Made by a program: the position numbers and the translations under genes
NCBI GenBank assembly: GCA_964434105.1
Contig: CAYSTJ010000003.1
Coordinates: 64,672-128,671, forward strand
Length of the DNA: 64,000 bases
From: an uncultured Cellvibrionaceae bacterium
GTDB lineage: Bacteria > Pseudomonadota > Gammaproteobacteria > Pseudomonadales > Cellvibrionaceae
Reading direction: 5' to 3'
Shown here: positions 40,695 to 46,283 of the stretch, one piece after another
Layout of the letters: each line of letters starts with the position of its first letter
How positions within the stretch are numbered: the first letter of the stretch is position 1
Notes under the pieces: model-generated
Databases searched by the model: none
The model's input: only the letters and a program-made list of their open reading frames with translations
Told to the model about the DNA's origin: nothing

Positions 40695-41690
40695 CTACTC
40701 GTAGCTCAGATCGCGGGCCTTACCCCAGAAGACACGGTAAATAAAGATTGTGTAACACGCAATCAGGGGAACGACGATCACCACGCCCACGAAAACAAAT
40801 TTCAATGATGCGGTGGACGCGACGGTTTCTGCCATAGTCAGGCGATCAATCACGATATCCGGATAAATGCTGTACGCCAGACCCAGCGCCGCCATGATGC
40901 AAATCACCACCATGCCCGCATAAACCATCCAGCCATTATCATCGCGCAACGCACCGGGCTTCCAAAGCAGGCTGATGATTATCGCGTAGGCGACGGTTGT
41001 GGTAACCGGGATAGGCAGCAGCATAAGCGCCGCAGGCAGGGTAAACCATTTATCGGCAATAACCTGACTGGCTACGGGTGTGGCGATGGAAATCAGAAAC
41101 AGGCCCACCCCCATCGGAATAACTGTGAGGCGCGCCCAGCGAGCTGCTTTACGGTAAAGATCGCCACTGGTTTTGATAAACAGCCAGCCGCACCCCAGCA
41201 TGACATACAACGTTGGCAACGCCAGCGCAATGGCTACCGAGAACAGTATTGCCGTTCTGGTCGACTGCAACCCCATCACATAGGCACCCAGCATCCAGCC
41301 CTGTGACAGCGCTGCCAGCAACGACCCGACAAAAAACAGTCTGTTCCAGCGCTGCCTGTATCGAACTTTGGCTTTTACCCGGAAATCAAACGCAACGCCG
41401 CGCAGGATCAGGCCCAGCAACATCAGGGTTACTGGTAAATACAGCGATGTCAGTATCATGCCATGGGCTGTGGGAAACGCGATCAGGAGTACCCCGACCC
41501 CCAATACAATCCATGTCTCATTGGCGTCCCAGAAAGGGCCAATGGTCGCAATCATCTTGTCCTTCTCTTCTTCAGTTGCCAGCGGCACTAGCAGACCAAT
41601 ACCCAGATCATATCCGTCAAGGACGATATAAACCAGCAGTGCCAGCCCCATCACTGCGAGAAAAAACAACGGCAACCAGGCTTCCATCAA
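40695..41690 (-). CDS. cydB: Cytochrome bd-type quinol oxidase subunit II
   Basis: 331-aa polytopic ORF whose start overlaps the subunit I stop, with a typical CydB/CioB N-terminus (LDGYDLGIG). Confidence 0.9.
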   Translation of the reverse strand: MMEAWLPLFFLAVMGLALLVYIVLDGYDLGIGLLVPLATEEEKDKMIATIGPFWDANETWIVLGVGVLLIAFPTAHGMILTSLYLPVTLMLLGLILRGVAFDFRVKAKVRYRQRWNRLFFVGSLLAALSQGWMLGAYVMGLQSTRTAILFSVAIALALPTLYVMLGCGWLFIKTSGDLYRKAARWARLTVIPMGVGLFLISIATPVASQVIADKWFTLPAALMLLPIPVTTTVAYAIIISLLWKPGALRDDNGWMVYAGMVVICIMAALGLAYSIYPDIVIDRLTMAETVASTASLKFVFVGVVIVVPLIACYTIFIYRVFWGKARDLSYE

Positions 41691-43054
41691 GGCACCTCCC
41701 GCGGCACTGTCTGCGTTCCGGGATTCTTGAGCTTCTGCTCGTCTGTCAGAGAACGTGATGATTTACTGGCCATATAGCGCAAGGTAAGAATAAAAGACGT
41801 CAGCAAAAAAGCGTACAGCAGCATATAGGCCGTAAACGTTGACAACACCATACCGCCAGTGTGGTCTGCCACCACCTCAGCCGTTTTTATTTCGCCATAA
41901 ACAATCCAGGGCTGCCGGCCAATCTCGGTCACATACCATCCCGCCAACACCGCCACCCAGCCCGAAAATGTCATCCAGGAAAGCGCAAGCATCAAACGAG
42001 GACTCTCGGACGCTTTCCCGCGCCATAGCGCCAGGCTGCCCCACCACGAGACCAGCAACATCAAAAAGCCGAGTCCTGCCATGATCCTGAATGACCAGAA
42101 AACAATCGCCACAGGCGGATGCTCACCTTCGAACTCGTTCAGCCCCAACAATTCGCCCTGTAAATCGTGCGTCAGTATCAAACTGGCCGCATTCGGTATC
42201 TGTACGGCCATATGGGTGGTGCGGGAAGCTTCATCAGGAAAACCGAACAGCGTGAAGTCGACACCTTTTTCAGTATGCCAGATGCCTTCAATCGCGGCGA
42301 TCTTGGCAGGTTGATGCTGAAGCGTATTAAGCCCCAGGAAGTCGCCCAGCACGATTTGGGTCGGCGCCAGCACGGCGGCTATGGTTACACCAGTGCGAAT
42401 GACTTTCCACGTACCGGGACCCGCTTTGTCCATTCGCACCCGCCAGGCACTGACCCCGGCGACAAAAAAGGCGCTGGTGAGCAGTGCGGCAATGAACATG
42501 TGCAGAAATCGGTACGTAAAAGAGGGGTTGAAGATAATCTCCCACCAGCTCGCCACCATTAAAACGTTATTTTCGACAGTATAACCACTCGGCGTTTGCA
42601 TCCACGAATTGAGCGCCATGATCCAGAAGGCCGAGAATGTGGTTCCTACTGCCACCAATGCCGTTGCAATCAGATGCAGCCGGTTTGACACAAGATTTTT
42701 GCCAAACAGCATTATCCCCAAAAACGAGGCCTCCAGAAAGAAAGCCGTCAATACCTCATAGCCCAACAGCGGGCCGGCAATATTCCCTGCCCGCTCCATG
42801 AAGCCGGGCCAATTGGTCCCGAACTGGAAACTCATGGTGATGCCAGATACCACCCCCAGTGCAAAGCTTAACGCAAAAATCTTGACCCAGAAAAAATAGG
42901 CATGCTCCCAGTCCCTGTCTCCGCTGAATGTAAAACGCAGCCGGAAATACAACAGGATCCACGCGAGACCGATGGTGATGCTGGGAAAGAGAATATGGAA
43001 ACTGATATTGGCTGCGAACTGCAAACGGGATAGAAGGAACGGATCGAGCTCCAT
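41687..43054 (-). CDS. cydA: Cytochrome bd-type quinol oxidase subunit I (short Q-loop, CIO-like)
   Basis: The likely start is the ATG at 43054 (MELDPFLLSRLQFA). The motifs FHILFPSITIGL and GWYVTEIGRQPW are present. A length of about 455 aa implies a short Q-loop. Confidence 0.93.
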   Translation of the reverse strand: MELDPFLLSRLQFAANISFHILFPSITIGLAWILLYFRLRFTFSGDRDWEHAYFFWVKIFALSFALGVVSGITMSFQFGTNWPGFMERAGNIAGPLLGYEVLTAFFLEASFLGIMLFGKNLVSNRLHLIATALVAVGTTFSAFWIMALNSWMQTPSGYTVENNVLMVASWWEIIFNPSFTYRFLHMFIAALLTSAFFVAGVSAWRVRMDKAGPGTWKVIRTGVTIAAVLAPTQIVLGDFLGLNTLQHQPAKIAAIEGIWHTEKGVDFTLFGFPDEASRTTHMAVQIPNAASLILTHDLQGELLGLNEFEGEHPPVAIVFWSFRIMAGLGFLMLLVSWWGSLALWRGKASESPRLMLALSWMTFSGWVAVLAGWYVTEIGRQPWIVYGEIKTAEVVADHTGGMVLSTFTAYMLLYAFLLTSFILTLRYMASKSSRSLTDEQKLKNPGTQTVPREVP

Positions 43055-43168
43055 ACTGCATACCTGCTGCCGAACATGGGCCACATAGCTTAAAGCATTC
43101 GCGATTTTATCGCCAGCGGACAGTTACCCCGGTTGACGGGTCTGTCTGCGGTGCAGCTGTTGAAGCGA

Positions 43169-44071
43169 TCAATCGTAGTGGTCGCGACAGTGCTCACCCG
43201 GGAATTCAAACTCAATGGTCGTGTGGGCCAGATTGAAGTCTTCCAAAGCGAGCGCGACACGCGCTTTCAGTACTTTCAGTTGACTCGCTCCCAACGCCTC
43301 CTCCAGACACAGGTGGACAGTCAGCACATGCTGTTCGCCATCCAGTGACCACAGGTGAACACCGTGCACGCCGTTTACACCGTTCAGTTCCACCAGTCGC
43401 GCGTGGACCTGCGCATAGGTGTGGGAATCCGGCGTTGCCTGGAAGAAAACAGCAGCGGTGGACTTTAACACTCGAAAGATATTGAACGCGATAAACAGGG
43501 TAAACACGATCGAAAGCAACGGATCAAGGATCGGCCATTCAAAGAATTGCAGGGTAATCGACACGATCAGCACCGCAAGCCAGCCAAGAACGTCCTCCAG
43601 GAGATGCCAGTTCAACGCTTTCTCGTTCAGCGTCGCGCCCTTACTCAATCGGTAGGCTGCATAGCCGTTGACGACGACCCCCAGCAATGCCAGATACAGC
43701 ATCCCCTGCGCATGAGGCATGACCGGGTCGCTCAACCGCGGAATAGCCATTGATAACACCCAGACACTCCCTCCGACGAGTACAGCGCCGCTTATCAGGG
43801 CACCCAGCAAAGAAAATCGCCGGTACCCGTAAGTAAAGGTCTGGTTGGCGGCCTTTCTACTGTATGTCTGTAGACCCCAGGCCATGCCAAGTGCCAGGGT
43901 ATCGCCCAGGTCGTGCACCGCATCCGCCATGATCGCCGTACTGTTGGTGAGCAACCCACCGACAACTTCGATCAGTGTAAAAACAAGATTTAGAAAAAAG
44001 GCCAACGCTATCGGATTGCCGGAAGCAGATCCATGGCTTTGAGTATGACTGGCGTGGGAGTGGTTATGCAT
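43169..44071 (-). CDS. czcD: Cation diffusion facilitator (CzcD/ZitB-like) metal exporter
   Basis: 300 aa with a His-rich N-terminus (MHNHSHASHTQSHG), the TM motifs ADAVHDLGD and HLLEDVLGW, and a C-terminal cytosolic domain. Confidence 0.9.
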   Translation of the reverse strand: MHNHSHASHTQSHGSASGNPIALAFFLNLVFTLIEVVGGLLTNSTAIMADAVHDLGDTLALGMAWGLQTYSRKAANQTFTYGYRRFSLLGALISGAVLVGGSVWVLSMAIPRLSDPVMPHAQGMLYLALLGVVVNGYAAYRLSKGATLNEKALNWHLLEDVLGWLAVLIVSITLQFFEWPILDPLLSIVFTLFIAFNIFRVLKSTAAVFFQATPDSHTYAQVHARLVELNGVNGVHGVHLWSLDGEQHVLTVHLCLEEALGASQLKVLKARVALALEDFNLAHTTIEFEFPGEHCRDHYD

Positions 44072-44306
44072 GCATCTGACCCGAGTATGTCCGTGCTATC
44101 CCTTATTACAGCACATACGACCGCGACCGGTAACGAAGCGCGCGAGAATCTACCTCGTCCATGGCGCGCCGGGCAAATGCGAAAATAAAATGTCAACCGG
44201 CCTGAATATCGCGACTGCAATCCTGTACAAGACCGGGGCACAATGCTTATGATCACGCGTTTCAACCACCGGGCCTCCAGCCCGCCTGCCACCCCAGATT
44301 GAGGTT

Positions 44307-44630
44307 ATGTCCATGCACAAGAAAATGATCGGTTCCATTACGCTGAGTTCGATGGTTGCGCTCGCCGCAAGCGGTGCCCACGCCGCCGACACGCCGTTCT
44401 CCGCCGAAAAGCTGGAATCGGGCTATCAGCTGGCCGCGGCAGAAAAAGACGCTGAGGCCAAGTGTGGCGAAGGCAAATGCGGCGAAGGCGCCTGTGGCGC
44501 AAAAAGCAAGGACAGTAAAAAGGACAGCAAATCCGCCAGCGACCCGGACAGCGACAAATCGGCCAAAGACGGGGAAGGAAAGTGCGGCGAAGGTAAATGT
44601 GGTGAAGGTGCCTGCGGCGCTGCCGGCTGA
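44307..44630 (+). CDS. hvfA: RiPP precursor: Sec-signal peptide + two EGKCGEGKCGEGACG modules (HvfA / EGKCG-bufferin type)
   Basis: 107 aa (the start could be 44313). It has a signal peptide ending AHA|AD and six Cys in two identical modules. The two 42-nt modules differ only at synonymous positions. A DUF692 gene follows immediately. Confidence 0.8.
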   Translation: MSMHKKMIGSITLSSMVALAASGAHAADTPFSAEKLESGYQLAAAEKDAEAKCGEGKCGEGACGAKSKDSKKDSKSASDPDSDKSAKDGEGKCGEGKCGEGACGAAG

Positions 44631-44649
44631 ACATCGGCGCCCTTTACTG

Positions 44650-45501
44650 ATGACTAGGTCGCTGTCGGGATCCGGTCTGGGTCTGCGTCGGGAGATGCTG
44701 CCGGTATTGCAGCAGGCGGATCTGTCCGTCATCGACTTTTTTGAAGTCGCCCCGGAGAACTGGATTAACCTGGGTGGTCGCTACGCGGCCGATTTACGCC
44801 ACTACAGCGAACGGTTTCCCCTGGTTTGTCATGGCCTTTCACTTTCGTTGGGAGGCTCTGACCCGCTGGATTTTGATCTGCTGCGCAATATCCGGCAATT
44901 TATGCGCGAACACGGCGTCACACTCTATACGGAGCATCTATCCTGGTGCGGTCATGACGGCCACCTTTATGACCTGTTGCCGTTACCGTTTAATGAAGCG
45001 GTGGCCCGGTGGGTGGCGGATCGTATCCGTCAGGCCCAGGATGCGCTGGGGAGGCGTATCGCCATTGAAAATTCGTCCTATTATTTTTTACCACCCGGCA
45101 GTGACATGTCAGAGTCAGAATTTATTGGTCAGGTGGTGTCCCTCGCAGACTGCGATTTACATCTGGACGTCAACAATCTGTATGTGAACAGTCGCAATCT
45201 CGGCTATGACGCAGACGATTTTCTGCACAGTATTCCGCGTGAGCGAATATGCTATATCCATGTCGCCGGTCATTACACTGAACCCGATGGCTGGATGGTC
45301 GATACACACGGTACGGCGGTTATCGACGACGTATGGCGCCTGTTGCAATTAACCTACCAGCTGACCGGCCGCCCCTTGCCCACCTGCCTGGAACGCGACT
45401 TCAATTTCCCGGCCTTTGCGGAATTACAGGGCGAGTTGCGGACTATTCGGCAACTGCAGTCAGGCAATGCGATCGCAGCCGATCATACAGTGGCCCGATG
45501 A
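44650..45501 (+). CDS. hvfB: DUF692 / MNIO (multinuclear non-haem iron oxidative) RiPP maturase
   Basis: The start is the ATG at 44650 (MTRSLSGSGLGLRREML). Family motifs are GLGLR, EVAPENW, HGLSLSLG, TEHLSW, AIENSSYY, HLDVNNLYVNS, HVAGH, DTHG and CLERDFNFP. The upstream ORF-track extension overlaps the precursor out of frame. Confidence 0.9.
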   Translation: MTRSLSGSGLGLRREMLPVLQQADLSVIDFFEVAPENWINLGGRYAADLRHYSERFPLVCHGLSLSLGGSDPLDFDLLRNIRQFMREHGVTLYTEHLSWCGHDGHLYDLLPLPFNEAVARWVADRIRQAQDALGRRIAIENSSYYFLPPGSDMSESEFIGQVVSLADCDLHLDVNNLYVNSRNLGYDADDFLHSIPRERICYIHVAGHYTEPDGWMVDTHGTAVIDDVWRLLQLTYQLTGRPLPTCLERDFNFPAFAELQGELRTIRQLQSGNAIAADHTVAR

Positions 45502-46283
45502 CGACGCCCCCGATCTCACTGCAACGCTTCCAGTCGGCATTCAGTCAGCGAATGCGTGACCCGGGGGGCGCGGCGCTACCGGACGTGCCGTCGCGCCAGC
45601 AAACGCTCTACGAAACACTATTGTTCAATAATCTGTGCGGATTTCTTGATCGGTGTTTTCCTGTCACAAAACAGCGTCTGGGCGACGGACCCTGGCTGGC
45701 GCTTTCCCGACAGTTCTATCAATTGCATGCCTGCGAGACGCCCTACTTTCGCGAGATTCCTCTGGAGTTTGTCAAATACATCCAGCGTAATGACGCCGAT
45801 TTCCCTGCCTGGCTGCCGGAATTGGTGCATTATGAATGGATTGAGCTGGCCGTTGCCGGCGATCCAGTCACCCTGCCCACTGAAACCGCACCCGTCCGAT
45901 CACTCGAATCGGATACCGTCGAATTTAAAGTCAATCCCACCCTGCAAAACCTGCAATACCACTGGCCAGTTCACCGGCTTACCGCAGACATCACGCGCGA
46001 TGACCCAGTGGCGCCCGACGCAGTCACTTGCCTGCTGGTTTACCGTCGCTGCGATCACAGTGTTCAGTTTGTGCAGGTCAACCCGCTTACCGCCTGTCTT
46101 TTGCAATTACTGGCTGAGCTTCCCCAACGAAAAAGCCGACTGGACGAGGCCATGCTGCGGTTGTTTCCGGCCATGGATCAACAGTGGTTGTCAGCGCAGA
46201 TCGCGGCCCTGCTGACCGGACTGCTGAGCGATGAAGCGATATTTATTGCGAGGCGACCGGCGGATGAATTATCGACTGACTGA
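45498..46283 (+). CDS. hvfC: DUF2063-family partner protein (HvfC/BufC-like)
   Basis: The ATG at 45498 forms an ATGA overlap with the hvfB stop. The protein begins MTTPPISLQRFQSAFSQRMRDP, with LYETLLFNNLCGFLDRCFPVT typical of the DUF2063 N-terminal domain. Confidence 0.8.
   Translation: MTTPPISLQRFQSAFSQRMRDPGGAALPDVPSRQQTLYETLLFNNLCGFLDRCFPVTKQRLGDGPWLALSRQFYQLHACETPYFREIPLEFVKYIQRNDADFPAWLPELVHYEWIELAVAGDPVTLPTETAPVRSLESDTVEFKVNPTLQNLQYHWPVHRLTADITRDDPVAPDAVTCLLVYRRCDHSVQFVQVNPLTACLLQLLAELPQRKSRLDEAMLRLFPAMDQQWLSAQIAALLTGLLSDEAIFIARRPADELSTD

Follow-up and report, generated by a model that had tools for sequence, protein, structure and literature searches.

Synonymous divergence of two cysteine modules in a probable HvfA-family metallophore precursor gene of an uncultured Cellvibrionaceae bacterium

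Organization of the locus

The window, which is the whole 64,000-nucleotide stretch of DNA analysed here (contig CAYSTJ010000003.1, positions 64,672 to 128,671), carries a short gene whose sequence makes it very probably the precursor of a ribosomal peptide metallophore of the HvfA/oxazolin type (Buf_EGKCG, captophorin). The gene, its parts and its neighbours are the following.

43169..44071, minus strand: CDF-family metal efflux transporter, divergent (TIGR01297, 204 bits; the same neighbour is found in close orthologous loci)
44313..44630, plus strand: hvfA-family precursor gene, 105 aa (NF050137 match, GAGG, starts of orthologs; the alternative ATG at 44307 would give 107 aa)
44313..44384, plus strand: Sec-type signal peptide of 24 residues, A-H-A before A-D (read from the sequence: Lys-Lys n-region, hydrophobic core, AxA site)
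44385..44459, plus strand: leader with the motif P-F-x-A-x-x-L-x-S-G-Y-Q-L-A (F29, L34, G37, Y38 and Q39 invariant in the alignment)
44460..44501, plus strand: Cys module 1, KCGEGKCGEGACGA, three Cys (sequence; dN = 0 in three lineages)
44502..44579, plus strand: spacer, Lys/Asp/Ser-rich, 26 codons (length kept, sequence not; dN 0.19-0.36, 0 indels among three lineages)
44580..44621, plus strand: Cys module 2, KCGEGKCGEGACGA, three Cys (sequence; dN = 0 in three lineages)
44650..45501, plus strand: hvfB, MNIO (DUF692) maturase (NF003818, 386.9 bits, cut-off 360; PF05114, E = 4e-96)
45498..46283, plus strand: hvfC, DUF2063/RRE partner protein (NF050145, 215.4 bits, cut-off 142; PF09836 and PF22106)

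Two in-frame ATG codons could start the precursor, and a GAGG at 44301-44304 lies 2 nt before the one at 44307 and 8 nt before the one at 44313. Since the second has the GAGG at a distance of 8 nt and agrees with the equivalent start used by the gene call of the protein collection (P0001, 105 aa) and by the orthologs, translation probably begins at 44313 and gives a protein of 105 rather than 107 residues. The hvfB gene starts 20 nt past the precursor stop, and the stop of hvfB is overlapped by the ATGA of hvfC, whose start was placed from the 4-nt overlap in orthologous loci. No DoxX (hvfX) gene occurs in the cluster in the window; a search of the genome found a single match, which lies on another contig (C16).

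The surroundings of the cluster are shared with the close relative P0002, described below. In this lineage the gene for cytochrome bd oxidase subunit I and that for the CDF exporter, both on the minus strand, precede hvfABC in the same order as in the window (41687-44071; L111-L116). The 3′ end of hvfC overlaps the 3′ end of a convergent gene of 424-425 aa by 41 nt in the window (46243-46283) and by 29 nt in the P0002 lineage (L111:4436-4464), and on these two sequences the tail-to-tail overlap is conserved. The genome also has a second MNIO gene outside the window (C24:38537-39280), which is 33% identical to hvfB, has counterparts in all three congeners and is probably part of a bufferin-type cluster.

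The precursor and its family

The precursor matches NF050137 (KCGExKCG_twice, the HvfA-family domain of NCBIfam) with 27.5 bits against a cut-off of 19.5, in two stretches that correspond to the two modules and are the only matches to this model in the whole genome. Against NF050188, the equivalog model for Haemophilus HvfA, it scores 41.4 bits, below the cut-off of 95. By these profile scores the precursor is a member of the HvfA family and not the Haemophilus HvfA equivalog. The signal peptide is conserved in the alignment of orthologs, and a loose form of the leader motif is present in 72 of the 99 precursors of the family-wide survey. An AlphaFold model built from a seven-sequence alignment has no confident fold (mean pLDDT 45.7, pTM 0.15), and this short peptide is predicted to be disordered.

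The two cysteine modules

The six cysteines of the precursor make up two three-unit modules that are identical as peptides, both being read as KCGEGKCGEGACGA in the frame of the ORF 44307-44630. The sequence-only reading had placed the modules at 44460-44501 and 44580-44621, exactly 120 nt apart, and had claimed that they differ only at synonymous sites. On re-reading, the coordinates and the letters are as it gave them, the distance from start to start is 120 nt (40 codons), and a comparison by codon finds 7 of the 42 nucleotides different (offsets 6, 15, 21, 24, 30, 36 and 42), each in a third position and each synonymous. Seven differences scattered at random over 42 positions would lie exclusively on third positions with P = 1.3e-4, and seven random single-base changes would all be synonymous with P = 2.7e-5. 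The Cys codons are TGT/TGC/TGT in one module and TGC/TGT/TGC in the other, and the longest unbroken run of identical nucleotides between the modules is 8 nt.

A repeat search extends the similarity 15 nt further upstream, to 56 nt at 80% identity (44445-44500 versus 44565-44620). The five additional codons encode K-D-A-E-A on the side of module 1 and K-D-G-E-G on the side of module 2. Because of this similarity in the flanks, the duplicated unit is probably 19 codons long, with two replacement differences in its flank.

Conservation among close relatives

A protein search recovered two close relatives, P0002 with 90% and P0004 with 75% amino-acid identity, and the comparison is made among these two and the window, three lineages only. 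The P0002 gene is found with identical sequence on eight contigs from eight different samples, which are independent assemblies; where flanks are present these contigs have the same synteny, with cytochrome bd oxidase, CDF, hvfA, hvfB, hvfC and a peptidase. P0004 was found on a single contig. In each of the three lineages hvfA has 105 codons, the alignment is colinear and free of gaps, and the peptide of both modules is 100% conserved.

Divergence was estimated pairwise among the three lineages from Nei-Gojobori counts (dN, dS, pS). The sequence-only reading had proposed the alignment of orthologs with dN/dS per module as a check on selection at the peptide level, and the check supports its claim: in the two close lineages there is no frameshift, and over the 28 module codons dN is 0 in every pair, with pS of 0.43-0.64 and dS of 0.64-1.46. 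The three-taxon tree requires at least 16 substitutions in the modules, all of them synonymous (P about 3.5e-11 if they were placed randomly). The spacer, in contrast, has dN of 0.19-0.36, with 11-18 replacement changes per pair, and the difference in replacement changes between modules and spacer is significant (Fisher P = 6e-4 and 8e-7). Outside the modules and in the whole gene pS is 0.48-0.64, and dS of the whole gene is 0.8-1.4. Synonymous sites have diverged in the modules much as they have elsewhere in the gene, which places the constraint on the peptide and not on the RNA or DNA. Together with the NF050137 match above its cut-off, the synonymous-only changes of the modules and their contrast with the spacer bear out the proposal that the hvfA frame is translated and its peptide under purifying selection.

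The spacer (44502-44579) has exactly 26 codons in all three lineages, despite its 11-18 replacement changes and its slippage-prone Lys/Asp/Ser low complexity. This constant length may reflect a constraint on spacing, or simply the small number of lineages. In more distant congeners the modules themselves have drifted by replacement, for example to E-A-K-C-G, to G-M-C-G and, at one position, from Cys to Ser; these species keep the C-G core and the C-terminal E-G-K-C-G-E-G-A-C-G.

Reading frame

Several frames are open across this region of the window, among them an antisense ORF of 156 aa (44262-44732) and the hvfB frame, which extends upstream to 44356. These open frames are what would favour assigning the repeat to an overlapping shadow ORF, or to a non-coding element, with the hvfA frame unexpressed, an assignment that the orthologs leave with a negligible probability. 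The 156-aa antisense ORF is open in the window only, both orthologous lineages have stops in every alternative frame, and the curated family model matches in the hvfA frame only. Four of the alternative frames have 38-62 of about 104 residues changed, three to four times more than the 11-26 of the hvfA frame. The exception is the codon-aligned antisense frame, whose conservation comes close to that of the hvfA frame (14-28 residues changed) and which is interrupted by stops in all three lineages. As stops interrupt each of the other five frames in two or all three of the lineages, the alternatives were rejected, and on the sequence evidence hvfA is the frame to which the modules belong, as had been claimed from the window.

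Age and independence of the two copies

The layout of two modules 40 codons apart is common to the three lineages, and the duplication therefore predates their divergence, in agreement with the view of the sequence-only reading that it is old. How old is not estimable because the synonymous sites are saturated. When synonymous codons are shuffled within the gene, 7.19 +/- 1.7 codons differ, and two independent draws from the codon usage of the window (24 long ORFs) give 8.2 +/- 1.8, so the seven differences observed are those expected of random codons.

That the copies are not being homogenised, the remaining claim made from the window, agrees with the distances between them. Paralogous modules differ at 7, 5 and 5 nt within single genomes (mean 5.7) and at 3-8 nt between genomes (mean 5.8). 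Concerted evolution or gene conversion between the modules was rejected, because the distances within genomes are not below those between genomes. Orthologous pairs differ at 4-6 nt (mean 5.2), and so near saturation the synonymous sites give no sign of orthology, such as module 1 being nearest to module 1 of the relatives (5.2 against 5.7-5.8). RecA-dependent recombination needs roughly 20-30 nt of identity. An unbroken identity of at most 8 nt is far below this and would no longer offer a substrate for homologous recombination, which would be a simple reason for the copies now evolving separately.

The short identical run, and the alternation of TGT and TGC between the modules, would also be compatible with selection on the synonymous differences themselves, that is, with codon diversification against recombination or slippage of the repeat that guards against the loss of a module. 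This is very unlikely, since diversification would be expected to exceed the random values of 7.19 +/- 1.7 and 8.2 +/- 1.8, which the seven observed differences do not. The family-wide comparison below likewise finds genes above their shuffled expectation at the chance rate only, and 21 of the 65 genes significantly below it. Selected diversification was rejected on these grounds; plain saturation explains the data.

The same randomised sites carry no nucleotide signal of common descent, so the resemblance of the modules could in principle come from convergence on the motif preferred by the enzyme, each module having been built separately by local expansion of its units. The E-G-K-C-G unit is the consensus of the family and expands repeatedly, with recent repeats in 21 of 65 genes. 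Convergence is nevertheless unlikely, because the third unit of both modules has Ala in front of Cys, an uncommon context (44 of the roughly 690 for Cys in the family), and is followed by G-A, because both have the K-D-x-E-x flank upstream, and because three lineages have this layout and a fourth species of the genus has it in part. Descent from one duplication rests on the peptide, with its shared Ala-Cys third unit and K-D-x-E-x flank, and not on the nucleotides. The two copies most likely derive from a single old duplication, the duplicated unit being about 19 codons long.

Repeats across the family

From 110 loci anchored on hvfB, 99 precursors were collected that have a signal peptide and x-x-K-C-G units and lie upstream of hvfB. 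Codons were compared in the 65 genes with intragenic repeats that are identical as peptide over at least 10 residues. In 21 of these the repeats have significantly fewer codon differences than shuffled codons, and these genes contain recent duplications or homogenised repeats. Only one of the 65 has more differences than its shuffles at P < 0.05, which is the rate expected by chance. The intragenic repeats of hvfA thus range from fresh to synonymously saturated, and since the repeats of 21 of the 65 genes are significantly more alike at synonymous sites than shuffled codons and those of the remainder are saturated, the birth of repeats is ongoing in parts of the family. A repeat of 33 residues at one locus (L088) has 0 nucleotide differences.

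The number of modules, whose variation between strains the sequence-only reading had proposed to test, is constant in the three close lineages and variable within the genus and across the family. Counts of Cys within the genus are 5, 6, 6 and 9, one species having an extra half-module, and those of the sampled precursors are 2-17.

One metagenome contig from ENA (L120:1-2218, containing P0003) matches the P0002-type locus at 99.6% identity as far as the E-G-K-C-G-E-G-K-C-G stretch in module 2. Past this point it continues as an EF-hand-type hvfA, followed by an hvfB that is only 54% identical, and its coverage is about 3x. Such an HvfA joined to EF-hands at module 2 was not taken as evidence of recombination, given the abrupt switch of locus and the coverage of about 3x; the contig is probably an assembly chimera formed at shared motif-coding bases, a real recombinant being the alternative.

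Comparison with known systems

Among the nearest known systems is HvfA/oxazolin of nontypeable Haemophilus influenzae (NTHI1441, with HvfB, HvfC and HvfX). HvfB and HvfC together cause a loss of 4 Da on each of the six Cys in the three AEGKCGEGKCG motifs of HvfA, and the resulting oxazolin takes up about one Cu(I) for every two modified residues (PMC11252979). Originally read as oxazolone/thioamide, the modification has been reassigned to 5-thiooxazole (PMC12668002; bioRxiv 10.64898/2026.06.05.730506; 10.64898/2026.07.17.739211). The family is described as Sec-exported (PMC11252979, PMC12452194). The window precursor resembles NTHI1441 HvfA in its Sec signal peptide, short leader, repeated E-G-K-C-G and six motif cysteines, and in the adjacent genes for an MNIO (HvfB) and a DUF2063 protein (HvfC). 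Unlike NTHI1441 HvfA, with its three AEGKCGEGKCG repeats, it has two three-unit modules 40 residues apart, whose third unit is Ala-Cys-Gly; in the Haemophilus peptide the E-G-K-C-G cysteines are the only ones modified. The window peptide also lacks the N-terminal disulfide cysteine pair, its cluster lacks DoxX, and its host appears to be an environmental gammaproteobacterium. The best named match of the cytochrome bd subunit I, at 74%, roughly suggests a relation of this host to marine groups of the Pseudomonadales type.

FonA/fontiphorin of Fontimonas thermophila, of the "captophorin" class (PMC12668002), is similarly a precursor with Lys-Cys 5-mer repeats; it is processed by an MNIO-PME1 pair, and its modification is 5-thiooxazole. 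FonA has seven modification sites, unlike the window precursor with its six motif Cys. The minimal substrate for FonA processing is two repeats, and FonBC tolerated Ala before Cys (PMC12668002); this tolerance of Ala at position 3 fits the Ala-Cys units of the window.

The Buf_EGKCG/oxazolin family takes its name from the survey by Leprevost et al., which found about 2,000 members, 31-506 residues in length, whose repeat number varies and whose Cys number reaches 58 (PMC12452194). The window locus has the signature of this family, its core cluster of precursor, MNIO and DUF2063, and its phylum, Pseudomonadota (PMC12452194). DoxX (HvfX) is frequent in these clusters, where genes occur "in various combinations", and is not universal (PMC12452194). 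Unlike the published 17-residue repeat with two EGKCG motifs, the window has two three-unit modules, and its architecture differs from type 1 of the survey (PMC12452194) in having two modules of 14 residues, a non-repeated spacer of 26 residues and a period of 40 residues.

Proposed maturation and metal binding

If the locus functions as the HvfA and FonA systems do, the diiron MNIO HvfB and its partner HvfC would convert the module cysteines to 5-thiooxazole rings in the cytoplasm, each conversion costing 4 Da and giving absorbance near 302-305 nm. The Sec signal peptide would then take the product into the periplasm or out of the cell, as in published work. Outside the cytoplasm, pairs of heterocycles would bind Cu(I), and a peptide modified at all six Cys would take up at most three Cu. 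The enzyme would need the local x-x-K/A-C-G context and the metal site would need the rings, so that every residue of a module would be constrained while its codons drift, a process that would leave the synonymous-only pattern.

In all three close lineages the modules retain Ala-Cys as their third unit, and the other species of the genus has it in its C-terminal module. This unit and the fixed 26-residue spacer could mark a distinct sub-architecture, in which the two Ala-Cys cysteines are not heterocyclised and instead link or co-ordinate the modules, by way of either a disulfide between them or a copper site of mixed thiolate/thiooxazole type. Folded back on itself in this way, the peptide would form a single multi-copper centre, as opposed to a string of independent two-ring sites. 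Such a centre is improbable.

Significance

The biology of the system is already known, and a synonymous-only pattern is what a published family of RiPP precursors would be expected to leave. The finding thus matters little beyond annotation, and the family-wide result is incremental to published surveys, which already report variable repeat number. The locus is, even so, a clean quantitative case of purifying selection acting residue by residue on the core motif of a RiPP metallophore, and the correct reading frame is confirmed for a piece of DNA with several open frames. The range of repeats across the family, which shows no sign of selected codon diversification, may help studies of how copper sites are gained and lost in these precursors.
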